Shown in pieces: positions 32,408 to 63,508 of a stretch of DNA of 64,000 bases (position 1 is the stretch's first letter; the number at the start of each line of letters is the position of its first letter). The stretch lies in IMG/VR virus record IMGVR_UViG_3300005573_000052. The stretch is one strand, 5' to 3'. The DNA comes from a virus. The notes under the pieces were generated by a model. The model was not told the origin of the DNA, made no database searches, and saw nothing but the letters and a program-made list of their open reading frames with translations. A program made the position numbers and the translations under genes.

Positions 32408-32479
32408 GGCCCATTCGATAATCAGCTATGTCGGCGTGTTTTCACCACGCAGTAGGGAGGGCGGCACTCCCATGGGCTA
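32408..32479 (+). tRNA. tRNA-Glu(UUC)
   Basis: GGCCCAT/ATGGGCT; GCGTG-TTTTCAC-CACGC; T-loop GGCGGCA. Confidence 0.8.
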
Positions 32480-32480
32480 A

Positions 32481-32555
32481 GCCTCAGAGATGTTGACAGA
32501 TGCATGTCAGTCCGCCAGACTGAATGACCCGGAGCGTTGCCGGGCTGGGGCACCA
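32481..32555 (+). tRNA. tRNA-Gly(GCC)
   Basis: GCCTCAG/CTGGGGC; TCAGT-CCGCCAG-ACTGA; CCA. Confidence 0.8.
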
Positions 32556-32560
32556 ATTTA

Positions 32561-32641
32561 TCCCTCGTTAGCTCAGTCGGGTTAAGAGCAGCCCGCTTTT
32601 AACGGGTAGGTCGCGTTGTTCCCAACACGCACGGGGGACCA
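32561..32641 (+). tRNA. tRNA-Lys(UUU)
   Basis: GCCCG-CTTTTAA-CGGGT; irregular T arm; CCA. Confidence 0.85.
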
Positions 32642-32709
32642 TTCCTGTTAGACAGATTTCGGACCAGCGGTCCATAAACCTCTAACGACTGGGTGTATAT
32701 TACGGCGAC

Positions 32710-33708
32710 ATGTCCAACAAACGTCGCACAAGCGCCATATGGCAAATGCCATCAGATCAGTTCAAGACCATCGTTGCTCAGAGTTTTACTCTGACAGAGG
32801 TTCTTTCGCATTTCTCAATGCGCAACGTAGGTAGTAACAATCTCACCCTCAAGCGTCGCATCAAGGAGGAAGGAGTAGACATCTCTCATTTTAGACGAAA
32901 GGGTGGTGGTCGAAAGGGTCCGCGAGGCATGACACTCGAAGAGTGTATGTCCACCGTATTTATCGAAGGAAAGGTGGGATGTAAAAGCTCCGTGAGGCGT
33001 TACCTGAGAAGGTTCAAGTTGGTAGAAGAAAAATGTGCCATATGCTCACTGGGGCTAGAATGGAACGGCCAACCTCTTACACTTCAATTGGATCATATTA
33101 GTGGAGATTCTACGGACGACAGAGTGGAAAACTTGCGTTGGATATGTCCCAACTGCCACAGCCAGACAGATACCTACACCGGTAAGGCGAACAAAGGCCG
33201 GGTAGGGGCTAAAATCTTTTCACTTCCTAAAAGGACCGTTCCCACTGCCAACGAAACTTTGGTTATTACCGACAACGGAGAGACAAACATAGTCAAACGG
33301 GCTTCAATGACACGGGCCGAGATTAACGCCAAACACCGTAGCCATTGGCCATCCAAGGAGACATTGAGTGCCAAGGTATGGGAGAAGCCTCTCACTCACC
33401 TGAAAGACGAGTTTGGGTTCAAATCTATTACCTCGTTAAAGCAAATGATCAAGTTGTATCAAATACAAGCACCTCCTGTCGGATTCTGGGCTCGTTTGAA
33501 AGCCGGTTGGTCACGCGACCAAGCTATCAACCCTCCCACGCAGGCTCCGAAAAGATGCCTTCGTAAATTCACTGACGATCAAGTGCGTGAAATTCGCTCT
33601 CGCCTCGATAAAGGAGACAAACCGGCGGCTCTGGCTAGGGCCTATGGATGTAGCCACAAGACGATGCGAGATATACGAGACCGTCAACGATACGTTTCCG
33701 TCGTCTAA
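32710..33708 (+). CDS. HNH homing endonuclease in the tRNA island
   Basis: CAIC...LQLDHISGDSTDDRVENLRWICPNCH; HTH-like C-terminus. Confidence 0.85.
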   Translation: MSNKRRTSAIWQMPSDQFKTIVAQSFTLTEVLSHFSMRNVGSNNLTLKRRIKEEGVDISHFRRKGGGRKGPRGMTLEECMSTVFIEGKVGCKSSVRRYLRRFKLVEEKCAICSLGLEWNGQPLTLQLDHISGDSTDDRVENLRWICPNCHSQTDTYTGKANKGRVGAKIFSLPKRTVPTANETLVITDNGETNIVKRASMTRAEINAKHRSHWPSKETLSAKVWEKPLTHLKDEFGFKSITSLKQMIKLYQIQAPPVGFWARLKAGWSRDQAINPPTQAPKRCLRKFTDDQVREIRSRLDKGDKPAALARAYGCSHKTMRDIRDRQRYVSVV

Positions 33709-33772
33709 TCTTTCCAGTCCCGGAGGCCATTCCTAGCGCGACCTTTCCAAGGCGTGATGAATCCCGAGTTTT

Positions 33773-33846
33773 GACGGATTAGCCAAGCGGCGAGGCCACC
33801 CTCTGCAAAAGGGTTCAGACCAGTTCGACTCTGGTATCCGTCTCCA
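33773..33846 (+). tRNA. tRNA-Cys(GCA)
   Basis: ACCCT-CTGCAAA-AGGGT; TTCGA; U73-CCA. Confidence 0.92.
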
Positions 33847-33938
33847 CCTTTCCCCCTCCGTAAGATGTCCCTTAGCAGGGTTTAAGATACGGCGTGCGTG
33901 CTGACAAGGCAAAGCGCAAGGGATGCGAGGAAAATTTT

Positions 33939-34018
33939 GGGGCACGGGGCTGCTTGGCGTGGCCACCTCTTTTGCACAGAGGTTAATCAGCAGGTTTCGA
34001 TCATCTGGTGCTCCACCA
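33939..34018 (+). tRNA. tRNA-Ala(UGC)
   Basis: G3-U70; CCTCT-TTTGCAC-AGAGG; CCA. Confidence 0.85.
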
Positions 34019-34140
34019 ATTTATGCGGCCTCGGATAAACGGGGTTCCATGGTAGCTTGAAGCGGGGGTGCACTCCTGCCATTGGCCATGAGAGCCGTTA
34101 CGTCCGGCATGGGTGAAAATCCTTGAGTCCGCCCAATTTA

Positions 34141-34215
34141 GCCTCAGAGATGTTGATGGACACATGCGAGTTTTCCAAACTTGACTACTCGGATCGTTAC
34201 CGGGCTGGGGCACCA
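34141..34215 (+). tRNA. tRNA-Gly(UCC)
   Basis: same acceptor stem as Gly(GCC); loop TTTCCAA; CCA. Confidence 0.85.
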
Positions 34216-34302
34216 TCGTGTATTAGACCGTTAAAGACGCGGGGCAGATTGTAAACCTGTCGCCTTCGGGCCGACTCAGAGCGTTACTGAGATACACGAC
34301 CA
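34216..34302 (+). tRNA. tRNA-Tyr(GUA)
   Basis: loop TTGTAAA; long variable arm; CCA. Confidence 0.85.
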
Positions 34303-34308
34303 TTTCAC

Positions 34309-34381
34309 TGGCAGATAGCTTAAGTAGTGAAGCCCGCGATTGATAATCGCGAGAGTATCAGTGCAAATCTGATTCTGCCAA
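34309..34381 (+). tRNA. tRNA-Ile(GAU)
   Basis: CGCGA-TTGATAA-TCGCG; no encoded CCA. Confidence 0.85.
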
Positions 34382-34389
34382 ATTTTCCA

Positions 34390-34464
34390 CAGGACCGACA
34401 GGTATGTTATCGGCGAGCACTCCAAACGCTACGCGAGTTAGTTAAATTCTAACCGGTCCTGCCA
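34390..34464 (+). tRNA. tRNA-Trp(CCA)
   Basis: CAGGACC/GGTCCTG; loop CTCCAAA. Confidence 0.8.
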
Positions 34465-34465
34465 T

Positions 34466-34537
34466 GGAGTCCGGTCTAGTGGCCAGTTTCCCCTGAAGAG
34501 GGAGACGGACGCGATGCGATCTCGCGGGGCTCCACCA
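34466..34537 (+). tRNA. tRNA-Phe(GAA)
   Basis: TTCCC-CTGAAGA-GGGAG; CCA. Confidence 0.8.
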
Positions 34538-34545
34538 TTTTACGT

Positions 34546-34628
34546 TGCAGTCACAAGCCGAATGACGCTGAGGGTCTTCATACGTCCCGCGAAAGCTATG
34601 CCGAGTGAAACTCTCGGGGCTGCATCCA
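34546..34628 (+). tRNA. tRNA-Met(CAU) with extended variable region
   Basis: loop TTCATAC; GC-GAAA-GC extra hairpin; CCA. Confidence 0.7.
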
Positions 34629-34632
34629 ACTT

Positions 34633-34708
34633 TCACTCCGTGGGACATTGGTTGTCCGCCAGTTTTGGGAACTGGATCAAGTGTGTCCGATTCACACCGG
34701 GGTGACCA
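34633..34708 (+). tRNA. tRNA-Pro(UGG)
   Basis: CCAGT-TTTGGGA-ACTGG; CCA. Confidence 0.85.
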
Positions 34709-34783
34709 TCTTGAGGGAAACGCGGGTTCAACCCCCGCCGGGGCCACGGGGCCTCGTCGTCTAGACAGGTTAAGAAACCCTCT
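34709..34783 (+). ncRNA. circularly permuted, anticodon-less tRNA-like RNA
   Basis: 3' half (GAGGG-AAAC-T arm-CGGGGCCA) precedes 5' half (GGCCTCG-D arm-CCCTC). Confidence 0.75.
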
Positions 34784-34792
34784 AACTTTTTT

Positions 34793-34870
34793 GGCGCGTT
34801 AGCTCAGTCCATTCAGAGCAGCCCGTTGTCTGCGGGAAGGCCATGGGAGAGAAGCCCATACGCGCCGCCA
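34793..34870 (+). tRNA. tRNA-Asp(GUC)
   Basis: loop TTGTCTG; T-loop AGAGAAG; G73-CCA. Confidence 0.8.
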
Positions 34871-34874
34871 TTTT

Positions 34875-35032
34875 CTCCTGTGTCCGTCTGATTATCCCGT
34901 GCGTAGGGACTCAGCGCTAGTTGACAGCAACGCCACCGCTTTGTGGCTTAGGCTTAGCTAAACCCAATGCGTCCCGTAGTAGGTGAAAATTAGCTCTCAT
35001 CGCCCGGGCTACGCGATTGGTAGACACAGGAG
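34875..35032 (+). ncRNA. tmRNA mRNA-like-domain-like RNA
   Basis: 10-bp closing helix, pk1-like pseudoknot, UAGUU|GAC resume context, 12-codon frame. Confidence 0.5.
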
Positions 35033-35046
35033 GATTCATTTCGTTT

Positions 35047-35135
35047 GGGGGATTAGCTCAGTTGATTAGAGCGCTTCGTTTACACCGAAGAGGCCGAATA
35101 GGTTCACGCGGGTTTGAATCCTGCATCCCTCACCA
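35047..35135 (+). tRNA. tRNA-Val(UAC) with long variable arm
   Basis: CTTCG-TTTACAC-CGAAG; 17-nt variable region; CCA. Confidence 0.85.
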
Positions 35136-35141
35136 TTTTAT

Positions 35142-35238
35142 TGCTCAGACCCAGATGGCATGTTAGCTGGCTTCGACTGTTAATCGAATGCGGGGAGATA
35201 GTCTCAAACCAACGGTGGGGCGGCACCACCCTGAGCAG
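35142..35238 (+). tRNA. tRNA-Asn(GUU) with long variable insertion
   Basis: TTCGA-CTGTTAA-TCGAA; T-loop GGCGGCA; G73. Confidence 0.75.
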
Positions 35239-35239
35239 C

Positions 35240-35315
35240 GGGAGACGAATCGTCTAGTGACGATGTTTGCACGACACGCAAAATCAGTAGGGTGCAATCC
35301 CCTAGTCTCCCACCA
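35240..35315 (+). tRNA. tRNA-Val(GAC)
   Basis: TTTGC-ACGACAC-GCAAA; CCA. Confidence 0.8.
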
Positions 35316-35321
35316 TTTTAC

Positions 35322-35400
35322 CGGTCTGTAGGGTAGCCTGCCTTATCCCGCTTGCATGGGGTGCAAGAAATCGCCAGTTGAAATCTGGCCAGACCGACCA
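35322..35400 (+). tRNA. tRNA-Pro(GGG)
   Basis: CTTGC-ATGGGGT-GCAAG; C1-G72, A73. Confidence 0.85.
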
Positions 35401-35406
35401 TTTTAT

Positions 35407-35483
35407 CAGCACGTAGCTCAGCCTAGCAGAGCGATTGCCTCGGGTGCAATAGGTCGGGGATGCGATTTCCTCCGTGCTGACCA
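35407..35483 (+). tRNA. tRNA-Pro(CGG)
   Basis: ATTGC-CTCGGGT-GCAAT; CCA. Confidence 0.88.
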
Positions 35484-35487
35484 TTTC

Positions 35488-35640
35488 CGGGCTCGCAAGG
35501 GTCCGTTGTCATTCCACCTACGATGCAGCTTTACCGCTGACGCAACCGGAGGCAACAACGGAATGCACTTCCAGTGTCGTCCAAGCCTCGATAGGCGGCA
35601 CTCGAACAGGCAGGATACTACTGCGGGAGTCGTAGACATT
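35488..35640 (+). ncRNA. candidate structured ncRNA
   Basis: multiple hairpins plus long-range CTACGA/TCGTAG pairing; followed by a T-run. Confidence 0.4.
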
Positions 35641-35644
35641 TTTT

Positions 35645-35769
35645 GGGCCGTCAGTCGGCGCGCAACGGGGACAAACCCACCGGTAATCAACCCGGTCGCG
35701 ACCGGCACTAGCGAGCCGTGCGATTGCCTACGGGAGCGCGCGGAGAGGATGCGATTTCCTCGCGGTCCA
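35645..35769 (+). ncRNA. alanyl-acceptor tRNA-like RNA (tmRNA TLD-like)
   Basis: GGGCCGT/GCGGTCC with G3-U70 and A73; no D stem; 3-nt linker to T arm. Confidence 0.6.
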
Positions 35770-35781
35770 CTTTTGTTTTAC

Positions 35782-35888
35782 CGTGCTGAAGTTCAGCGTA
35801 AGGCCCGGGTTGATCACCGGGAGATAACGCGAGGAGAACACTCCCCGGAAGGAGAAGGTAGGAGGTGAAATACCTCTCGGCACGACCA
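35782..35888 (+). ncRNA. tRNA-like RNA with 8-nt anticodon loop and 39-nt insertion
   Basis: CGTGCTG/CGGCACG-A-CCA; CCCGG-GTTGATCA-CCGGG. Confidence 0.55.
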
Positions 35889-35949
35889 ATTCCGCGCTCA
35901 TTCTGGAAAGTCTGTAAAGCCGACGCGGGCAAAGTATCGGCGCTTTCAT

Positions 35950-36026
35950 GGTCCTCTGATGTAAATGGATAAGCATACCGCCCTTTGAAGGCGAGAGTCA
36001 CGTTTGCCAAGCGTGGGGGACTGCCA
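35950..36026 (+). tRNA. tRNA-Gln(UUG)
   Basis: CCGCC-CTTTGAA-GGCGA; G73-CCA. Confidence 0.8.
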
Positions 36027-36033
36027 ATTTTAC

Positions 36034-36109
36034 TGCTCCGTGGGATAACATCTAGTCCACACCCCTCTGAAGGGTCGAGGCGTCCGTGAGACTCGGGCCG
36101 GGGCAGCCA
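36034..36109 (+). tRNA. tRNA-Gln(CUG)
   Basis: ACCC-CTCTGAA-GGGT; G73-CCA. Confidence 0.8.
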
Positions 36110-36113
36110 TTTT

Positions 36114-36189
36114 GGGCCGTTAGCTCATTCAGCAGAGTATCGCTATGGCATAGCGGAGGTGGGGAGAGCAAAGCTCCCACGGTCCACCA
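36114..36189 (+). tRNA. tRNA-Ala(GGC)
   Basis: G3-U70; TCGCT-ATGGCAT-AGCGG; T-loop AGCAAAG. Confidence 0.85.
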
Positions 36190-36190
36190 A

Positions 36191-36445
36191 TTTCAAGCAG
36201 GAGAGCGTTCGCGGCAGAGATTGCTACGGCCATCTGTCGAGGAAGTTCGCGCCAGAAAAGAAGCCGACTGGGAGGGTGGCTTGGCTTGACCGCCGTCATT
36301 CTTACCGATGACCACCACCCGCCAACACCACATGGTATCTGCAACCCGAAAGCGCCCGAGGGTAGTTCTTCCCGCCAGCAGGGCATGGTTGGGGCTCAGA
36401 CAAATGAACGCATGAAACAGAAGCGCGGCTACGTCCACTTGAAAA
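36191..36445 (+). ncRNA. rnpB: RNase P RNA-like ribozyme with reduced specificity domain
   Basis: GAGGAAGTTCGCGC (CR-I) pairs with ACAGAAGCGCGGCTA (CR-V); P1, P2, P3, P5, P15 (GGGTAG) and P18 can all be drawn. Confidence 0.8.
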
Positions 36446-36451
36446 TTTTAC

Positions 36452-36538
36452 GGATCGGTCCCTATAGCAGCGATTAGCCCTGACTCTTAATCAGGTTGGC
36501 GAAAGCCTACGACGTGGGTGCGAGTCCCACCCGGTCCA
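36452..36538 (+). tRNA. tRNA-Lys(CUU) with long variable arm
   Basis: CCTGA-CTCTTAA-TCAGG; GGC-GAAA-GCC arm. Confidence 0.8.
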
Positions 36539-36539
36539 C

Positions 36540-36613
36540 GGTAGAGACAGCAAGAGCTGAGGACGGTTTCATAAGCCGTGCCGAGTAGGTTGCAATTACC
36601 TCCTCTACCACCA
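36540..36613 (+). tRNA. tRNA-Met(CAU)
   Basis: ACGGT-TTCATAA-GCCGT; CCA. Confidence 0.75.
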
Positions 36614-36617
36614 TTTT

Positions 36618-36693
36618 GCTGACCAAGCATAGACAGCGATGCACCACATTGGTAATGTGGATATGATGGGCGCACATCCCATGGTCAGCTCCA
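36618..36693 (+). tRNA. tRNA-Thr(GGU)
   Basis: CCACA-TTGGTAA-TGTGG; T-loop CGCACAT. Confidence 0.85.
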
Positions 36694-36698
36694 TTTTT

Positions 36699-36786
36699 GG
36701 GGTTGTGGCGTAACTGGATAGCCGTGCGAGGTCGAGAGCCTCGTGGTCGTGAGACCGTAGGGGTCCGAGTCCCCTCTTCCCCACCA
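36699..36786 (+). tRNA. tRNA-Leu(GAG)
   Basis: CGAGG-TCGAGAG-CCTCG; variable arm; CCA. Confidence 0.8.
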
Positions 36787-36791
36787 TTTTC

Positions 36792-36866
36792 GGGCGTATG
36801 ACGTAACTGGATAACCGTGCTGAGTTTAGACCTCAGATTTTGCAGGTCCGAGTCCTGCTACGCCTA
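36792..36866 (+). tRNA. tRNA-Leu(UAG) with short variable loop
   Basis: CTGAG-TTTAGAC-CTCAG; variable loop ATTTT. Confidence 0.8.
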
Positions 36867-36867
36867 C

Positions 36868-36942
36868 GGGGTCATCGAATAAGAGTAGTTCACCAGATTC
36901 TCAATCTGGAAATCGGAGTGCGTTGGCTCCGTGGCCCCACCA
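36868..36942 (+). tRNA. tRNA-Glu(CUC)
   Basis: CCAGA-TTCTCAA-TCTGG; CCA. Confidence 0.8.
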
Positions 36943-36947
36943 ATTTA

Positions 36948-37030
36948 CGGCTAGTGGATAAGGGAAACTGGTTACAACCGCGAAACTTAAAATTTCGTAT
37001 CCGCTGTGGGTCCGAATCCCACCTAGCCGA
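36948..37030 (+). tRNA. tRNA-Leu(UAA)
   Basis: CGAAA-CTTAAAA-TTTCG. Confidence 0.8.
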
Positions 37031-37035
37031 CTTTC

Positions 37036-37127
37036 GGGCGTATGGTGTAACAGAAACACGGAGGTCTCAAAAGCCTCTTTTGGGGCTCGCCCCCATATTT
37101 ACGGAGCATTGCCGTATACGCCCACCA
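37036..37127 (+). tRNA. tRNA-Leu(CAA)
   Basis: GAGGT-CTCAAAA-GCCTC; long variable arm; CCA. Confidence 0.82.
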
Positions 37128-37132
37128 TCTTT

Positions 37133-37269
37133 CAGCGGTAGCATATCGGTCAATGCTGTCCTCGCAACATGGGACTAGTCTGCCCAGCCTCCAAAGGCCA
37201 CGGATTAAGGTTGGGCAGAGAGACGCCCGCAAAGAGCGTTGAAGTGGGGTTCAAATCCCCTCACGCTGA
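37133..37269 (+). ncRNA. tRNA-like RNA with ~65-nt two-hairpin insertion
   Basis: CAGCG/CGCTG acceptor, D arm GCAT/ATGC, T arm GGGG-TTCAAAT-CCCC; 8-nt anticodon loop. Confidence 0.55.
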
Positions 37270-37350
37270 ATTCACCTATAGGGTTGACGGGCGGTAGCGC
37301 AGTTTGGCGACACCGGGTCGCTCGCAAACTGCTCCGATACCCTCCTTTTC

Positions 37351-37425
37351 GCGCATGTAGCTCAAAGGAAGAGCAGAGGACTCATAATCCTTTGGTTGAG
37401 ATGTCGGAATTCTCCGTGCGCACCA
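37351..37425 (+). tRNA. tRNA-Ile2/Met(CAU)
   Basis: GAGGA-CTCATAA-TCCTT-TGGT resembles Ile2-type anticodon arms; CCA. Confidence 0.8.
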
Positions 37426-37429
37426 TTTT

Positions 37430-37507
37430 GGTTCCTACTCCTAGATCAGCGAGGACCTCGACTCGTAATCGAGAACTGAGGCGGCTGCGATGCCGCAGGA
37501 ACCTCCA
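37430..37507 (+). tRNA. tRNA-Thr(CGU)
   Basis: CTCGA-CTCGTAA-TCGAG; U73-CCA. Confidence 0.8.
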
Positions 37508-37526
37508 TCTTTTTTTACTTTTTCAC

Positions 37527-37556
37527 TTGACACCGGCCACCCAATCGGGCTATGGT
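37527..37556 (+). promoter_or_regulatory. sigma70-type promoter of the Y RNA-Ro60 unit
   Basis: TTGACA-N18-TATGGT after a T-rich tract. Confidence 0.7.
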
Positions 37557-37584
37557 ATCCGTGTTCATTCTCACTTTCCCTTTT

Positions 37585-37661
37585 GCCGTGGTGCCAGACG
37601 ACCAGTTCCTCGCTGTAATCGACCGGACGAAAGTCCACTCTGGTCGTCGCCTGTTCCCGGC
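37585..37661 (+). ncRNA. Y-RNA-like RNA A
   Basis: GCCG/CGGC and CGACCAG/CTGGTCG stems; TGGTG...TCGCCTGTTCC motif shared with B and C. Confidence 0.7.
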
Positions 37662-37670
37662 AGTTATTTT

Positions 37671-37758
37671 TCTGCGATGGCGTCAGATGACGGTTACTTC
37701 TTCAATCCATAACTGAATCGCCCGCAAGGGCTAACCGTTCTCGCTTGTTCCTCGCAGA
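37671..37758 (+). ncRNA. Y-RNA-like RNA B
   Basis: TCTGCGA/TCGCAGA and ACGGTTA/TAACCGT stems; TGGCG...TCGCTTGTTCC. Confidence 0.7.
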
Positions 37759-37775
37759 TTCTCTTTCTCACTTTT

Positions 37776-37919
37776 GGAGTGGCGTAGAGCTAACCAGTTC
37801 CTCGAATACGGATCGAGAGGTCGGGGTTCAAATCCCCGGTGTCGCTTCGGCGACACTAGTGTAACGGTAGCACGCTTAGTGGTCGCAAGGCCACGCTCTG
37901 GTGCTCGCTTGTTCCCTCC
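37776..37919 (+). ncRNA. YrlA-like Y RNA C with permuted tRNA domain
   Basis: T arm, 7-bp acceptor-like stem capped by cUUCGg, D arm; shared motif; directly upstream of the TROVE gene. Confidence 0.85.
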
Positions 37920-37973
37920 AAATTCATTTCCTCGTTGCGCAGCAATTACGCCGCCGACGATGGCACTAGACCC

Positions 37974-39293
37974 ATGAAGACCAATACAAAATCCCCCCGC
38001 GCCAAAGTGTTTACCCACGAAGGTGCTCCCGCTGCCCACGCCACCGCCAAGCAGCAACTCCGCCGCTCCGTCATGTCCTGCATGCTCTGGGAGTCGGAAT
38101 TCCATGAAAGCGGCGAAGATATCGCCCAGCGAATCGCCTCGCTCGTTGCCAAGTGCAAACCTGAGGACGTGGCACTGATCGCTCGCGAAGCCCGCGAACA
38201 GATGAAACTGCGACATGTCCCGCTGCTCCTCGTGCGTGAAATGGCCCGCCTGCCTTCTCACCGCCCTTACGTGGCCGACACGCTTAACGCCGTCATCCAG
38301 CGCGCCGACGAACTCTCCGAGTTTCTGGCTATCTACTGGAAGTCGGGCAAAGACCAGCCTCTCGCCGCTCAGGTCAAAAAGGGACTGGCTCGGGCCTTCA
38401 CCCGATTCGATGAGTATGCCCTGAGCAAATATGACCGCGCCGGTGATGTCAAACTGCGGGATGCTCTCTTCCTCTGTCATGCCAAGCCGCAGGACAAGAA
38501 GCAAGAACGCCTGTGGAAACGACTCGTCAATGGCGAATTGAAGCCTGCCGGAACTTGGGAAGAGCAGCTTTCCGCCGGTAAGGACAAAAAGGCAGTGTTC
38601 ACCAAGTTGATCAAAGACGGTGAACTGGGCGCTCTCGCCCTGCTCCGCAACCTGCGCGGCATGACCGAGGCGGGAGTTAGCCACGAAATCATCACCCAAG
38701 CATTGGCTGGCATGAAAACCGAGCGGGTTCTCCCGTTTCGCTTCATCTCTGCCGCACGCTACGCCCCCCAGTTCGAGGCCGAATTGGAACAGGCGATGTT
38801 CAAGTGTCTTGAGGGAGTGGACAAGCTGAAGGGCTACACCATTCTGCTTGTGGACGTGTCGGGCTCCATGGATTCACCGATCAGCGCCAAGTCTGACCTG
38901 ACGCGTATCGACGCTGCTTGCGGACTCGCCATCCTATTGCGCGAAATCTGCGAACGGGTGGATATCTGCACGTTCTCCAGCGGGATAGTCGGAGTCCCTC
39001 CTCGCCGAGGATTCGCGCTGCGGGATGCCATCAAGAACTCGCAGCCCCATGCAAGCACCGATCTAGGTAGAGCACTCGATACCCTCAAGTATGGAACGGG
39101 TAAAGATCGCATCGTCGTCATCACGGACGAACAGTCCCATACGGCGGTTAATTCCCCCAAGACCACGGGTTACATGCTCAACGTCGCTTCAGCGGCAAAC
39201 GGAGTGGGTTACGGGGCCTGGAACCATATCGACGGTTGGAGTGAGAGTTGTGTGAAATTCGTGGCCGAGCTGGAGAAGCAAAGCGCCGATTGA
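37974..39293 (+). CDS. rsr: Ro60/Rsr TROVE-domain RNA-binding protein with vWA domain
   Basis: FTHEGAPA, KLRHVPL, IQRADE, FDEYALSKY, TWE, LALLRNLR, LPFRF, LVDVSGSM (MIDAS), VITDEQ. Confidence 0.95.
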   Translation: MKTNTKSPRAKVFTHEGAPAAHATAKQQLRRSVMSCMLWESEFHESGEDIAQRIASLVAKCKPEDVALIAREAREQMKLRHVPLLLVREMARLPSHRPYVADTLNAVIQRADELSEFLAIYWKSGKDQPLAAQVKKGLARAFTRFDEYALSKYDRAGDVKLRDALFLCHAKPQDKKQERLWKRLVNGELKPAGTWEEQLSAGKDKKAVFTKLIKDGELGALALLRNLRGMTEAGVSHEIITQALAGMKTERVLPFRFISAARYAPQFEAELEQAMFKCLEGVDKLKGYTILLVDVSGSMDSPISAKSDLTRIDAACGLAILLREICERVDICTFSSGIVGVPPRRGFALRDAIKNSQPHASTDLGRALDTLKYGTGKDRIVVITDEQSHTAVNSPKTTGYMLNVASAANGVGYGAWNHIDGWSESCVKFVAELEKQSAD

Positions 39294-39316
39294 CCGGGCT
39301 GAAAGGTCAAGTTTAC

Positions 39317-39349
39317 AGAGGGGGCGAACAAGCCTCCTCTTTCTTTTTT
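39317..39349 (+). terminator. intrinsic terminator
   Basis: AGAGGGGG/CCTCCTCT stem plus T tract after rsr. Confidence 0.65.
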
Positions 39350-39351
39350 AC

Positions 39352-39427
39352 GGCTCGTTGCCTCAGTGTTCACAGGAGTGCCTTTGTAGCGCACCATTCG
39401 GCGGTTAAAATCCGCCACGAGCCTCCA
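39352..39427 (+). tRNA. tRNA-Thr(UGU)
   Basis: loop TTTGTAG; GGCTCGT/ACGAGCC; U73-CCA. Confidence 0.75.
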
Positions 39428-39434
39428 TTTTCAC

Positions 39435-39596
39435 GCCCTAGTAGCTCAGGCCCTACCAAATATCGGGTATCAGAAGAGCGCGCTCATTAGTTGGTCACCC
39501 AAGCGAACGGCACTTAGTGAACTCATCAATTGAGGGTTTGCGATGCTGCCGTTCGACAAGCGAGGTCGTCGGTGCCAAATCCGACCTAGGGCTCCA
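39435..39596 (+). tRNA. tRNA with ~65-nt insertion in the anticodon loop and a hairpin in the D loop
   Basis: perfect GCCCTAG/CTAGGGC, GCTC/GAGC D stem, CGCTC/AAGCG, AGGTC, T arm, CCA. Confidence 0.65.
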
Positions 39597-39602
39597 TTTC
39601 AT

Positions 39603-39681
39603 GGTGACAAAGGCAGAAGTAACTCAAAGCGCGGCCCTGTGAAGGCCGTTTAAGCGGGTGTGAGACCCGTTTGTCACCCCA
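39603..39681 (+). tRNA. tRNA-His(GUG)
   Basis: 8-bp acceptor with G-1:C73; CGGCC-CTGTGAA-GGCCG. Confidence 0.88.
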
Positions 39682-39687
39682 ATTCAC

Positions 39688-39764
39688 GCGACACTCGGCA
39701 ACCGAATAGTCACCCTGCTTGCGGAGCAGAATCAGTCCCAGTTTGAATCTGGGGTGTCGCACCA
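39688..39764 (+). tRNA. tRNA-Arg(GCG)
   Basis: CTGC-TTGCGGA-GCAG; CCA. Confidence 0.78.
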
Positions 39765-39772
39765 TTTTTCAT

Positions 39773-39855
39773 GCGAGCGTAGCCGAAGGGAGCTTCTATC
39801 TCCTTCCCCGTAACCGGAGCTGCAAATGGAGGTTCGACTCCTCTCGCTCGTGCCA
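39773..39855 (+). tRNA. arm-swapped tRNA-Arg(UCU)-like
   Basis: anticodon hairpin (loop CTTCTAT) precedes D-like arm (loop AACCGGA); canonical T arm; G73-CCA. Confidence 0.65.
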
Positions 39856-39859
39856 TTTC

Positions 39860-39935
39860 GCGCTGGTCGGCAATGTATAGTCAACCTCGTTTCGACCGAG
39901 AATCAGTGTGGGTTAGAGTCTCACCCGGCGCACCA
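39860..39935 (+). tRNA. tRNA-Arg(UCG)
   Basis: CTCG-TTTCGAC-CGAG; CCA. Confidence 0.8.
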
Positions 39936-39941
39936 TTTCAC

Positions 39942-40022
39942 GCGAACGTATCCCCTCGGTTTCCTAAACCGGCGAAAGGGTAATCGGAATCCATGGAGGA
40001 TCGTCCCCTCTCGTTCGCACCA
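39942..40022 (+). tRNA. arm-swapped tRNA-Arg(CCU)-like
   Basis: TCGGT-TTCCTAA-ACCGG precedes GGGT-AATCGGA-ATCC; A73-CCA. Confidence 0.7.
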
Positions 40023-40099
40023 CTTGAACCCCATGAAGGTTCCACCCGGCGAGCCTCGGACAGAGCGGTTACAGGCCGAATCACAGCGTTAATTTTTAC

Positions 40100-40189
40100 G
40101 GAGAGGTGGCAGAGTGGCCTATTGCACTGAGCTTGAAACTCAGAACAGAGTAATATCTGTCGCGAGTCCGAATCTCGCTCTCTCCTCCA
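40100..40189 (+). tRNA. tRNA-Ser(UGA)
   Basis: CTGAG-CTTGAAA-CTCAG; long variable arm; CCA. Confidence 0.9.
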
Positions 40190-40193
40190 TCTT

Positions 40194-40283
40194 AGAGAGC
40201 CAACTGAACGAGGTTCAGGACTGCTTGGAAAGCAGCTCGGGCCGCGCAAGCGACCTACGGGGCAGCACCGTGACTCTCTGCCA
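40194..40283 (+). tRNA. tRNA-Ser(GGA)
   Basis: CTGC-TTGGAAA-GCAG; G73-CCA. Confidence 0.82.
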
Positions 40284-41409
40284 TTTTCACCGGTCGTCCA
40301 CGTCTCCCTCGAAAAGTCGAAGACAACAATCCAAATCGTATCATCGCGTCACGTGTTACCTCGTGATTAAATCCAATGGCTAATCCAGCCTGTCGAAGAG
40401 ACCCTTTCGTTTTAAACACTTCGTAAGCTAATTGTGCCTGCTCGGCTGTTGGACGATGAAGTGGTTTACGAATGCGTTTTTGGCTCACGAGAGCCTGTTC
40501 ATGAGTATATCCCGCATGGCGTCGAACCCAATAACCTATAGGAGGTAACGCAACTCCGTATCGCTTGGCCCAACGACGAACCGAGTTACCGTTTACGCCA
40601 TAATCCTTGGCTATGTTCTCTATGGACTTACTCCACACAAGGATGGTCAACTCTTCCTTGGAAGGCCACACTACCTTACGGGAGGCCACTGCGGCAGCAG
40701 CTCGATTGCCATATATGGGCTTGTCCAGAGAACGCAAATATTCTTTCGCCTCGGGAGTCATAGCCCTAACGGATCGTTCTTTGGGGGATATCCGTATGTG
40801 CACGTCACCGAGGTCTCGCGACGTATCCGGTTCGTCTGTAGACCGAAAAACCAACCCCTCTTTGGCCATGATTCCATGAATGGTGTCGTAATTACGACCC
40901 TTAGGGGCCAAACCCAATCGCCGACACACATCACTCGGACTAGTGCATTGGGGGATTGCCTCAATATACATCTGGCGAGATACCTTGACTGTTCGTTTAC
41001 GCGTGGCGGCCCCCTTGTGATTAGGGGCTAATCCATGACAATTTCGACAAAGAACCTGAAGATTCTTTAACTCGTTATTATTATGGTTACCGTCTACGTG
41101 ATGTAACTCTATCGGTATCGGCTCTCCCTGCCATCTGTCATTACCGCATCTCTCACAGACAGGACTTTTAAGACCCTCTCGAAAAAGACGCTTCTTCAAA
41201 TTATCGCTCGCGAGAGGATACTGATTAGATAGGTAAACCTCGATAGGGCGTCCACTGTAAGGGGGCCAGTGAGACGTGTCAATCTGATTCTCGGCAAGGA
41301 GTCGTCTAATACGTTTTTTGTCTCCTCCTCCAAGAAGACGCAAAAGCATATTGCAGGAGGTTGATTCGGCGGCAAGTTGACGTAGTTGGTCGATATTAAG
41401 GGTAGTCAT
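40255..41409 (-). CDS. HNH homing endonuclease, antisense to the tRNA island
   Basis: CERC...IELHHVDGNHNNNELKNLQVLCRNCH; shares WPSKE..VW.K..PP.G.W with 32710. Confidence 0.85.
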   Translation of the reverse strand: MTTLNIDQLRQLAAESTSCNMLLRLLGGGDKKRIRRLLAENQIDTSHWPPYSGRPIEVYLSNQYPLASDNLKKRLFREGLKSPVCERCGNDRWQGEPIPIELHHVDGNHNNNELKNLQVLCRNCHGLAPNHKGAATRKRTVKVSRQMYIEAIPQCTSPSDVCRRLGLAPKGRNYDTIHGIMAKEGLVFRSTDEPDTSRDLGDVHIRISPKERSVRAMTPEAKEYLRSLDKPIYGNRAAAAVASRKVVWPSKEELTILVWSKSIENIAKDYGVNGNSVRRWAKRYGVALPPIGYWVRRHAGYTHEQALVSQKRIRKPLHRPTAEQAQLAYEVFKTKGSLRQAGLAIGFNHEVTRDAMIRFGLLSSTFRGRRGRPVKMAESHGAAP

Positions 41410-41475
41410 GTTCACCCTAGATACACCGCTGAAGACCCGGTTTGTGTGCAATTCTCCACTTTCCGCCATTTTTAC

Positions 41476-41565
41476 GGTAGGTGAATCCGTGCAGGTCACG
41501 GAGCGGCCCTCGAAAAGCCTGCGCGCCCGCAAGGACGTTTTCTGCGACTGAAACGCCTACCGCCA
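41476..41565 (+). tRNA. tRNA-Ser(CGA)
   Basis: loop CTCGAAA; variable arm; G73-CCA. Confidence 0.72.
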
Positions 41566-41741: not shown

Positions 41742-42365
41742 ATGAGCACCATCCTCGACAAGCAGATTTGCCTCAAGCTAAACAAGAACTGGCAAGGCGT
41801 AGGCTTTGTCACGATAAAACAAGCTGTCACCTTCCTCTGCTCGGAGCAGGACGGCGAGCATCCCGGTTTCGCGCTCGATATCGAGATGGTCACAAATGAG
41901 AACGGCGAATCGGTCCTGTCCTACGCCAACCCGACCAAGTGGGAGGACTGGCTGAAGCTTCCCGTGCGCGAGTCCGACCTTGCTATCACGACTGGTCGCG
42001 GGCAAATTCGCGCTCCGCTGGTAGTTGTCTGTGCCAACTATGCCAAGGTTCCGACCCGCACCACGCGCTGGTCCACGGGCAATGTCCATCGCCGCGACAA
42101 TTACACCTGCGCCTACACGGGCGAGAAGCTCAGTCACGCAACCGCCACGGTTGACCATATCCAGCCCCGTTCACGCGGCGGCAAGGACGCGTGGGAAAAT
42201 ACCGTGTCGTGTCACAAGCGCGTCAACCTGCTCAAGGCCGACCGCACGCCCGAGGAAGCCGGACTGAAACTGCTCGTCAAGCCCAAGGCTCCGCCCATCA
42301 TGCCCGTGGTCATCACGGCGGATGAGGCGCGGCACGAGGCGCAGCGACACTTCCTGATTAACTAG
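41742..42365 (+). CDS. HNH endonuclease (McrA-like)
   Basis: RDNYTCAYTG...TVDHIQPRSRGGKDAWENTVSCHKRVN. Confidence 0.88.
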   Translation: MSTILDKQICLKLNKNWQGVGFVTIKQAVTFLCSEQDGEHPGFALDIEMVTNENGESVLSYANPTKWEDWLKLPVRESDLAITTGRGQIRAPLVVVCANYAKVPTRTTRWSTGNVHRRDNYTCAYTGEKLSHATATVDHIQPRSRGGKDAWENTVSCHKRVNLLKADRTPEEAGLKLLVKPKAPPIMPVVITADEARHEAQRHFLIN

Positions 42366-42376
42366 CCCAGCCCATC

Positions 42377-42412
42377 AATCCCTCTGACCTTAACCGGCGG
42401 AGGGATTTTTTT
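42377..42412 (+). terminator. intrinsic terminator
   Basis: AATCCCTC/GAGGGATT stem plus T tract. Confidence 0.65.
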
Positions 42413-43004
42413 GTTGACATCGTATGACCAATTTGTCTATCATGAAGTAAACGTGACCCAACTGACCTTCAACCAAGTTCTTCATCGAGAGTATTTGGGC
42501 TCGCCCGTCTGGAAAGCAAAACGAGAAGAGGCCATAAATCATTATGGGCCAGTCTGTTCTCGATGCAAAGAATACGGAACAGACGTTCATCATAAAACTT
42601 ACATTCGGTGGGGTGGCAATGAATTAATGGAAGACCTTGAAATCATGTGTCGTGAGTGCCACGACGCGCATCATCGGGTAGAAAAGGCAACCCGACAAAA
42701 GAAAATCAAGAAAAAAGGTCTACGCAGAGAAGCTATCTACCGATACCTGTCTCCAAGCCAAAAGAAAATCCTAATTGACAGGTTCTCTCTGTCTGGAGAT
42801 AAGGACCTCTACGGAAGAATTGTTTTAAGTAACTCCTTGCCAATAATTAACGAAGCGTTGAAAATTCTTGGTTGTGATTACGCCTATGGACCAAAACAAA
42901 TTTTCAGACCTCCTGTAAGCAAAAAAGAAAGAGAAAAAAATCTTCAACGGGTAAAAAGACAAGAGGAGGCTTACAAACTCGCAATCTCAGGTAAATTACC
43001 GTAA
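42411..43004 (+). CDS. HNH endonuclease (true start probably GTG ~42453)
   Basis: CSRC...VHHKTY...NE...LEIMCRECH; TTGACA-N18-TATCAT at 42414-42443. Confidence 0.75.
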   Translation: MLTSYDQFVYHEVNVTQLTFNQVLHREYLGSPVWKAKREEAINHYGPVCSRCKEYGTDVHHKTYIRWGGNELMEDLEIMCRECHDAHHRVEKATRQKKIKKKGLRREAIYRYLSPSQKKILIDRFSLSGDKDLYGRIVLSNSLPIINEALKILGCDYAYGPKQIFRPPVSKKEREKNLQRVKRQEEAYKLAISGKLP

Positions 43005-43019
43005 CAATCTACAATCTCA

Positions 43020-43760
43020 ATTTAACCACGAGTGTATCTCGTGATCCTACAGTCACTGGCCCGGGTTTAATGGGCGGCACTGGCGACGGGTGTCAAAGTA
43101 AGCCGTCGTAGTTTCATGGATAGGTTCCGCTTGCCGCTGCTGAGTTTGCCACTTCTAAGCAGGAAAGTCGGTTGCAACACCGATGGGGATGAAACATGTC
43201 ACTCTTACCTCGTTCGCGGGAGTCATCCGCCGCGACGTTCCGGGCAACCGGGGCCGGAAGAGTGTTCTATGGGATAGGGACGGGGAGAAACCGTATTGAA
43301 ACAGCGCCGCGCTTTAACCGCCCGGTTCTGGCTCTCCGAGACCATCAGGGTCGAATTGGAACCGAGACGTTGGTAAAAGACCCGCGAAGCTCTCGCGCGA
43401 CTTCCATAGGCTTTCTGCTTCCCTTTTCGCCCGGCGATAGGGAAAGTGGTTACCCATGAACAGGTTTCCACTTTCGTTGCTGTCGCAACGAGGCACTCCG
43501 CTGCGCTCCGTGCCAAATGACGAGAATTACTATCTTTCGCTTCTCCTCTCCACCTTTCTCCTTCGCCCGGTTCACGGGTGCTCCTTGAAGCCCTCTCTCT
43601 TACGTCTCACCCCTAAAGCTGAACACCTATAACTAATGGGGCTTAACGTTGAGCCCATTTCGCCGGAAACCCGGTTCATCTGAAAAATTACTCATGGTTC
43701 AGTGAATAGTATAATACTAGTGATGGTTCAGTATCTGTAGGCCAAGTTCCTGCTACCCAA
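43020..43760. other. long non-coding, hairpin-rich interval
   Basis: no credible ORF; about ten stem-loops. Confidence 0.45.
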
Positions 43761-62090: not shown

Positions 62091-62269
62091 TGACTGTTTC
62101 ACTCCGCTACCCCAAGTGTATCTCCTGCTCTCAACCCCTTTTTCCAGTCCAGCTAGCCCAAGGTCCAAGGTAACGTAACCCACCCCGCCCATGCCCAACG
62201 CACGTTAGCTCGGGTAAAAATAACAAGAGAATCTGTCGAATCTTGTTCTGGCGGGTGTATAGTAGGCCG

Positions 62270-63508
62270 ATGCACAAAGGTTACAGTTTCCGCCTTTACC
62301 CGACAGAGACCCAAAAGGCTCTGCTTGAAAAGCATTTTGGTTGCGCTAGATGGGTCTATAATTGGGCTCTGGAACAGAAAATCGCCTATTACCAGAAAGA
62401 AAAAAAGGGAGTGTCAATGTATGAGGTGGCAAGGGAATTGACCAAGCTAAAGCGTGAAGAGGGGAAAGAATGGCTTCAAGAAGTGTCGAGTCAGTCTCTC
62501 GGCTATTCCATGATGCATTTGGATAGAGCTTTTACTAATTTTTTCAAGCACAAAAAGGGATTTCCTAAGTTCAAAAGCAAGAAAAAGAGCCGAGCGAGTT
62601 TCACTCACAATTTGAGTAACGATCTCAACGAAGAGAAGGGGCTTGTTTACGCAACCAATTTTAGAGAGGGGATAAGATGTGTTTTCACTCGTCCTGTCGA
62701 AGGGAAGATTAAGCGGATGACGTTTTCCCGGACCAAGACGGGAAAATACTATGTCGGGATATTAGTCGAGACCCCGGAGGAGTTCCCCACACCCCCGCCT
62801 CCAAGGGAAGAACTCTCCGTAGGAATAGACTTAGGGCTGAAGACGTTTGCAACATTAGACGACGGAACCAAGATTGATACCCCGAAATTCCTTCAAGGTT
62901 CCCTCCAAAGGCTCAGGCGAGCGCAAAAGCATTTAAGTCGCTGCCAATATGGGTCCAAAAATTGGGAAAAGGCGCGTGACAAGGTGGCCAGACTGCATGA
63001 GCACGTAGCTAACTCCCGAAAAGATTTTCTGCACAAGGTCAGTCATAAACTAGTATGCGATAATCAAGCTACTACGTTATGCATTGAAAACTTGGACATA
63101 ACAGAAATGATAGAAAAGGCCCCTTCGCGGCGTAAAAGGTCGATTTACGACGCGGGGTGGAGGATGTTTAGGGGTATGCTAGAATACAAGTGCGAGTGGC
63201 ACGGCAAAAATTTAATGATGATAGGCCAGTTCGAGCCTTCAAGCAAGATATGCTCGTGCTGTGGGGAGATGAACAAAGACCTCGGCAAAAAACGAGAATG
63301 GACGTGTAAAAAATGTGAGACACACCACGACCGAGACATCAATGCCGCCAAAAACATAAAAAAAATAGCCTTTTGCAAGCAGAACACTGTGTCTGCCAAG
63401 ATTTTACCGCCGGACAGGCGGGATGTTAAGCCTGTGGAGAGTTCCGTTTTGGAATTCAACGAAGCAGGAACGGAAAAGGATCGCCTAACTCCCTCACGGG
63501 GTGTATAG
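62270..63508 (+). CDS. tnpB: TnpB RNA-guided endonuclease (IS200/IS605 or IS607 type), no TnpA nearby
   Basis: YSFRLYPT, FGCARWVYN, GIDLG, CIENL, CSCC...CKKC, DRDINAAKNI. Confidence 0.93.
   Translation: MHKGYSFRLYPTETQKALLEKHFGCARWVYNWALEQKIAYYQKEKKGVSMYEVARELTKLKREEGKEWLQEVSSQSLGYSMMHLDRAFTNFFKHKKGFPKFKSKKKSRASFTHNLSNDLNEEKGLVYATNFREGIRCVFTRPVEGKIKRMTFSRTKTGKYYVGILVETPEEFPTPPPPREELSVGIDLGLKTFATLDDGTKIDTPKFLQGSLQRLRRAQKHLSRCQYGSKNWEKARDKVARLHEHVANSRKDFLHKVSHKLVCDNQATTLCIENLDITEMIEKAPSRRKRSIYDAGWRMFRGMLEYKCEWHGKNLMMIGQFEPSSKICSCCGEMNKDLGKKREWTCKKCETHHDRDINAAKNIKKIAFCKQNTVSAKILPPDRRDVKPVESSVLEFNEAGTEKDRLTPSRGV
63405..63500 (+). ncRNA. TnpB omega-RNA scaffold and possible guide
   Basis: AAGCCTGTGGAG...GAAGCAGGAA overlapping the tnpB 3' end. 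Confidence 0.6.

Follow-up and report, generated by a model that had tools for sequence, protein, structure and literature searches.

RNase P RNA, a trans-acting ribozyme of ancient origin, has been described in cells and organelles. Among viral RNAs, theta ribozymes are small, HDV-like and self-cleaving. Those of gut phages adjoin phage tRNAs and are linked to tRNA processing (PMC10879173). The camelpox virus RNA that resembles RNase P RNA is inactive in vitro, and a decoy role was proposed for it (PMC3001073). In cellular RNase P RNAs, the GGU of L15 is the element that pairs with tRNA RCCA (PMC10731613). Class A C-domains retain activity in isolation, whether or not protein is present (PMC5839562, PMC11143913), and in the isolated E. 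coli C-domain P6 matters and P18 is dispensable (PMC5839562). Deletion of the S-domain from E. coli RNase P RNA cuts both efficiency and tRNA affinity (PMC11143913, PMC5839562). Methanocaldococcus uses a G-U-U variant of P4 (G40, U41, U42), and deletion or change of U42 cripples the activity of the M. jannaschii RNA (PMC6565675).

We identified an RNase P RNA homolog of 254 nt, P1 to P1, at 36191-36444 (+) of a 64-kb stretch of viral DNA (the window), using sequence, Rfam, covariation and a family model. The window appears to come from a large bacteriophage, with genes for a UvsX-like recombinase, ribonucleotide reductase, glycosyltransferases, a sigma-70-like protein, HNH nucleases and Ro60. 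The RNA has the universal RNase P RNA features that can be tested, namely the P4 pseudoknot with a bulged U and, in order, CR-IV, P2, P5 and the J5/15 A anchor, and it lacks features that define class A, type T and type M. The elements of the locus are given below, with pairing percentages as the share of paired cells in an alignment of 38 family members.

32408-40189, +, tRNA island of at least 25 genes, likely substrates
36114-36189, +, tRNA-Ala(GGC), ending in CCA, one base ahead of P1; same neighbour in the related phage G477
36191-97/36438-44 and 36200-02/36434-36, +, P1, from sequence and fold, outside the covariation count
36205-10/36406-11, +, P2, 6 bp, 94% paired, two-sided changes at 6/6 pairs
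36213-18/36233-38, +, P3 hairpin, from sequence only, preceded by J2/3 GC
from 36239, +, CR-I, from sequence
36244-52/36423-30, +, P4 with bulged U36247, 99% paired, two-sided changes at 4 pairs
36253-56/36338-41, +, P5, 99% paired, two-sided changes at every pair
36259-62/36366-69, +, P6 pseudoknot, 90% paired, two-sided changes at every pair
36263-36336, +, remnant S-domain, 74 nt, a single interrupted arm
36263-66/36333-36, +, outer helix of the remnant, 34% paired family-wide, present in a subgroup
36269-71/36328-30, +, inner helix of the remnant, 91% paired
36272-73 (GA) opposite 36321-27, +, 2x7 internal loop, a conserved motif
36274-36320, +, variable branched hairpin, distal helix 96% paired
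36342-44, +, J5/15 CAA, with A36343 as the A anchor
36345-47/36391-93, +, P15, 3 bp, 96.5% paired
36354-57/36381-84, +, P16, 69% paired
36360-62/36371-73, +, P17, 61% paired
36387-89, +, L15 GGU, RCCA-binding, columns at least 90% conserved
36398-405, +, CR-IV, from sequence and alignment
36417-22, +, CR-V, from sequence and alignment
36452-36537, +, tRNA-Lys(CUU), 7 nt downstream of the P1 end; same neighbour in G477

The first-pass annotation had proposed a virus-encoded RNase P RNA inside a tRNA island, and the homolog is borne out by the family model, by covariation and by its tRNA neighbours. No RNase P RNA match in the window reaches the Rfam gathering thresholds (84 bits for RNaseP_arch, RF00373, and 100 bits for the bacterial class A model, RF00010). 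A cmsearch with the Rfam models, the check that the annotation had proposed, does match the archaeal model from end to end (36193-36442, 26.2 bits, E 1.7e-5), a weak score below the gathering cut-off that is the best Rfam match of the window. A family covariance model built from 32 relatives, with the window sequence excluded, gives the window RNA 111.7 bits and the runner-up in the window 8.5 bits. The long non-coding gap at 43040-43515 does not match this model. The window has a single instance of the combined CR-I/P4/CR-V motif, against none in 300 shuffles. Another assembly record, which may derive from the same sample, has an identical RNA stretch. A blastn search of cultured phages with the window RNA as query returned chance-level matches only.

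Covariation across the 38 aligned sequences scores 0.597, as compared to 0.188 when shuffled and at most 0.143 with the partners slid, and kinship among the aligned sequences inflates such scores. The result supports the conclusion that P2, P4, P5, the P6 pseudoknot and P15 have been kept through compensatory change; without such change it is difficult to account for pairs in P4, P5 and P6 that take up to four different standard types. It also argues against a decaying pseudogene. The lower pairing of P16, P17 and the outer S-domain helix reflects rows of the alignment in which they shift in register or are missing. Plain minimum free energy folding does not recover the modelled structure, and the stability of the fold is not unusual (z -0.06); the nested skeleton, at -62.3 kcal/mol with its pseudoknots uncounted, lies about 21 kcal/mol above the minimum of -83.4.

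P1, P2, P3, CR-I, P4 with its bulged U, P5, the CAA, CR-IV and CR-V had already been placed correctly on the sequence in the first-pass annotation; P6, P16 and P17, which we find to be present, were absent from that description. The P18 drawn there (36375-79/36388-92), together with a P15 partner in the G run at 36360-62, pairs at the chance level (52.8%, against 53.8% in shuffles). The interval from P15 to CR-IV is also too short for P18, which we reject, and the 3' strand of P15 is at 36391-93. The tRNA-binding GGU had likewise been misplaced, the RCCA-binding one being that at 36387-89.

P4 aligns without gaps to the E. coli P4, as A-U, G-C and U-G pairs, the bulged U36247 and then five pairs. 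By E. coli P4 numbering, we take U36247 to be the equivalent of U69; A36343 in J5/15 is presumably the equivalent of A248. G36245-U36246-U36247 matches G40-U41-U42 of M. jannaschii, with U36247 in the place of U42 (PMC6565675). The difference from the E. coli P4 that was noted earlier stands, and can be specified as the G-U-U variant that Methanocaldococcus shares (PMC6565675). Across the family the bulged U, the A anchor, the L15 GGU, CR-IV and CR-V are all conserved, with the conservation from CR-IV to the P4 3' strand (36398-36431) partly fixed by the search patterns. The variable 4-mers of P4 take 34 different forms among the 134 reduced members, each of which was chosen for at least 7/8 P4 pairs. 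With P6 kept and P18 absent, the phage RNA retains what the isolated E. coli C-domain requires and lacks what that domain can do without (PMC5839562).

The specificity region had been described as shrunken to about 80 nt and with no recognisable CR-II or CR-III. We find a remnant of 74 nt, and P8/P9, CR-II and CR-III are absent from the window RNA. Among 134 reduced members a CR-II/CR-III pattern turned up in one, which on visual inspection is a false positive. As a matter of speculation, the 2x7 internal loop might be a remnant of the P10/P11 contact with the T-stem.

A first IMG/VR scan, with the 3' motifs alone as its pattern, yielded at least 120 loci. Although CR-I was not in that pattern, it lies upstream, with a complementary P4, in about 69 of the 120 loci listed. 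Further scans brought the count to 142 distinct relatives, which answers the suggestion of a viral database survey; tRNA genes are in the locus for 125/142, and about 17/142 have no tRNA nearby. The family is larger than 142, because the patterns miss members with altered CR-I or CR-V. Such altered members include the RNAs of loci L283 (5952-6173) and L493, in one of which the G-C pair at the P4 base has become C-G. Ultra-small members of about 165-180 nt, apparently also without P6, P16 and P17, occur in L084 (666-844, -) and L124 (9879-10042, +). The ultra-small members score 55-64 bits on the family model and 44.4 bits on RF00373.

The nearest phage, G477 (219 kb, 96% complete), was retrieved by its recombinase alone (47% identity). 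Its RNA lies between the same tRNA-Ala(GGC) and tRNA-Lys(CUU), with compensatory changes in P6 and in the outer S-domain helix. A broad recombinase scan returned distant fragments only, and the TROVE-related viruses that we examined have no copy of the RNA. The RNA is also found in huge phages of 735 kb and 635 kb. A cultured carrier, Stenotrophomonas phage DLP6 (KU682439.2, 105774-106022), has an unannotated copy in its tRNA cluster that scores 54.7 bits on RF00010, below the 100-bit cut-off. Since DLP6 is in culture, the gene is open to experiment. A GTDB scan, covering the short form of the pattern only, picked up RNAs from DPANN archaea with a type M layout, as well as two MAG contigs of phage-like character, L173 (CALFYV010000090.1) and L175 (JAAXWV010000224.1). 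One of the two MAG contigs is 546 kb long and encodes a terminase, a tail sheath and, close to the RNA, an SmpB-like ORF; the other match sits in a 3-kb tRNA array.

We found no published phage RNase P RNA gene in the searchable, mostly open-access full-text literature. Term look-ups in the huge-phage paper, the DLP6 paper, the viral tRNA survey and the 2026 type T paper returned no phage RNase P RNA. The reduced forms are missed by the Rfam cut-offs. With well over 100 phage copies, from full-length class A to half-size, the family forms a natural deletion series, informative about how small an RNase P can be and about the purpose of the specificity domain. Maturation of tRNAs would join the translation steps taken over by large phages, and compact, elbow-independent versions may suit RNA-targeting tools and orthogonal tRNA sets.

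Like bacterial class A RNA (E. coli M1 RNA/rnpB; RF00010), the window RNA has P1-P6, P15-P17, the bulged U of P4, the J5/15 CAA, the L15 GGU, CR-I, CR-IV and CR-V. Unlike it, the RNA is 254 nt long (class A about 377), lacks P8, P9, P12-P14, P18, CR-II and CR-III, has a P15 of 3 bp and a P4 base of A-G-U-U in place of A-A-G-U, scores below the RF00010 cut-off and is encoded by a virus. A full S-domain together with the same P4 variant occurs in about seven phage members. Four of these full-length members were tested; they have P18 and score 158-189 bits on RF00010, over the cut-off. Because such members exceed the RF00010 threshold and share the P4 variant, we conclude that the family originates from bacterial class A RNA, its likeness to archaeal type T being convergent. 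The first-pass annotation had been reminded of type T RNAs; the resemblance holds, and the kinship does not. As in type T (PMC3579882), a class A-like catalytic domain is joined to the loss of most of the S-domain, and P18 is missing. The 3-bp P15 may parallel that of type T, which is one pair short, and the remnant helices might correspond to the type T P10, which stops before P11/P12. Unlike type T, the phage RNA has a P2 of 6 bp (type T 3) and a P5/P15 linker of 3 nt (type T 2) and retains a different piece of the S-domain; type T also uses archaeal proteins.

The G-U-U at the P4 catalytic centre is shared with archaeal type M and DPANN RNAs (M. jannaschii; RF00373; PMC6565675). Those RNAs, however, keep CR-II/CR-III and are without P6, P16 and P17, which is the opposite reduction, and the DPANN RNAs reach no more than 22 bits with the phage family model. 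In Micrarchaeota and Aenigmatarchaeota (L174-L218) we saw compact RNase P RNAs that combine a type M layout with the G-U-U variant. No donor of the P4 variant was found in the sampled genomes of CPR (Patescibacteria) or Bdellovibrionota, whose RNAs have a canonical P4. The phage RNA is like the theta ribozymes in being a virus-encoded RNA tied to tRNA processing, and unlike them in that those are small and HDV-like. It is like the camelpox RNA (PMC3001073) in being virus-encoded and RNase P-resembling, that poxvirus RNA being inactive.

A descriptor search identified 25 tRNA genes in the island, with 0 on the reverse strand and 0 in shuffles. CCA is encoded by 19/23 window tRNAs. A canonical T-loop is found in 1/25 window tRNAs, 0/27 in G477 and 0/22 in a third relative, as compared to 976/1193 for tRNAs beside reduced RNAs. 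G55 occurs with a D-loop AG in 79/98 tRNAs and U55 with GG in 1124/1185, which suggests that A18-G55 replaces G18-U55 in these phage tRNAs. C56 is retained in 15/23 window tRNAs; from these sequences, the elbow appears partly rewired and not lost. The T-loop/D-loop swap is seen in the window (32408-40189), in L493 (G477, 63000-83000) and in L398, L056, L369 and L131. Arrays that are mostly non-canonical occur in 0/5 carriers of a full S-domain and 10/94 of a reduced one; this association between S-domain loss and T-loop change is not significant (Fisher p = 1). They are scattered over the RNA tree (FastTree, 148 columns, unrooted), with 9 changes for 9 rows. A complete 109-kb phage has 10/22 non-canonical T-loops, yet no match to the family model. 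The idea that the S-domain was lost to suit remodelled tRNAs fails family-wide, given this test and the canonical tRNAs beside most reduced RNAs. Because most carriers have normal tRNAs, the S-domain was probably lost first, with T-loop drift later in some lineages, an order read against a weak, unrooted tree.

We consider it likely that the RNA is a phage-encoded ribozyme that uses host RnpA to mature the 5' ends of phage tRNAs. It would descend from a bacterial class A RNA and remove 5' leaders from polycistronic phage pre-tRNAs, with which it would be co-transcribed as part of the tRNA array. The complete catalytic domain, whose fold has covariation support, would bind Mg2+ at the bulged U of P4, as its homologs suggest. 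The substrate would be gripped by the acceptor stem, through pairing of the 3' RCCA with the L15 GGU and through the J5/15 A anchor, elements that are conserved. Cleavage of the tRNA-Lys(CUU) leader would free the 3' end of the ribozyme. Host RnpA is the presumed cofactor because a phage gene is absent from the records searched: 49 records of carrier viruses, including 10 with a completeness of 90% or more, yielded none, neither did TIGR00188 in 5 more carriers, closer-related or T-loop-remodelled, and the RnpA RNR motif is absent from the 64-kb window. The genome of the window's own virus was examined within those 64 kb, so the cofactor could be a phage protein. Lacking the CR-II/CR-III platform for the T-loop, the ribozyme would take little account of the tRNA elbow, a tolerance that may have allowed or accompanied the wholesale T- and D-loop remodelling in this phage lineage. 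Placement among likely substrates, conserved compensatory structure, full-length class A kin and CCA-encoding tRNAs support the proposal. Against it stand the presence of a host RNase P, which leaves most carriers, with tRNAs of normal appearance, no evident need for a second enzyme, the energy gap between the nested skeleton and the minimum free energy fold, the harm done to the E. coli RNA by S-domain deletion, and the inactivity of the sole earlier viral RNase P-like RNA, that of camelpox.

A stronger form of this proposal, which overlaps it, makes the RNA part of a private system: host RNase P could not process elbow-remodelled phage tRNAs, themselves altered to evade tRNA-targeting defences. 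In all three members of the lineage that were examined, the RNA is present and canonical T-loops are all but absent, and the mostly non-canonical arrays fall among the reduced carriers. We regard it as possible but doubtful, since that contrast is not significant, most reduced RNAs lie among normal tRNAs, non-canonical arrays are scattered on the tree, C56 persists in most window tRNAs, and the 109-kb phage has altered T-loops and no match. Equally tentative is the broader suggestion of a widespread, elbow-independent, phage-specific type of RNase P RNA with a minimum of about 165-180 nt, serving here as the private route for a near-complete, host-evading, rewired tRNA set. An active endonuclease might instead have been retargeted, as RNase MRP was from RNase P, with tmRNA, Y RNA, 4.5S-like hairpins or mRNAs of host or phage as its main substrates. 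E. coli RNA without residues 94-204 loses pre-tRNA cleavage and still cuts pre-4.5S with protein (PMC11143913), there is a conserved internal loop particular to the remnant S-domain, and some loci have no nearby tRNA. The consistent siting inside tRNA arrays and the retained RCCA-binding L15 make this unlikely.

The absence of the main substrate-reading module would also suit a decoy or sponge, in which the RNase P-like fold sequesters host RnpA or tRNAs, or absorbs a defence, and cleavage is incidental. Such a role was proposed for the camelpox RNA (PMC3001073), and the island has other decoy-like RNAs (Ro60 gene). A decoy is nevertheless highly improbable given the conserved bulged U, A anchor, L15 GGU, CR-IV and CR-V, and sequestration of RnpA would stop maturation of the phage's own tRNAs. 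Scores far under the Rfam cut-offs, a P4 variant shared with DPANN archaea and two matches in bacterial MAGs could point to a host rnpB fragment, an archaeal type T or M gene, a pseudogene or a by-product of minus-strand ORFs of 81-85 aa. The DPANN RNAs differ in layout and score poorly on the phage model; the MAG matches are the 546-kb contig with terminase and tail sheath and the 3-kb tRNA array; and the sampled Patescibacteria and Bdellovibrionota RNAs have a canonical P4. With a copy in the cultured phage DLP6 and covariation opposed to decay, a non-viral or non-functional origin is largely refuted and barely tenable. The phage-encoded ribozyme acting on phage tRNAs remains the preferred reading.

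Several further features of the island were observed. Promoter and terminator counts are at the chance level. Variable arms of 12-25 nt occur on the normally short-arm tRNAs Met, Val, Asn and Lys (34546, 35047, 35142, 36452), and the Leu(UAG) tRNA at 36792 has a variable arm of 5 nt. The Ro60/TROVE gene (37974-39293) lies within the island, in a region (37527-39340) that also has a match to a sigma-70-like promoter, a terminator and, upstream, repeated RNA-like units that may be Y RNAs. ORFs at 32710-33708 (+), 40255-41532 (-) and 41742-43004 (+) interrupt or flank the island; among such ORFs two match HNH families, and others are homing endonuclease-like by eye, without a Pfam match. A transposase-family (TnpB-like) gene lies at 62243-63508 (+).
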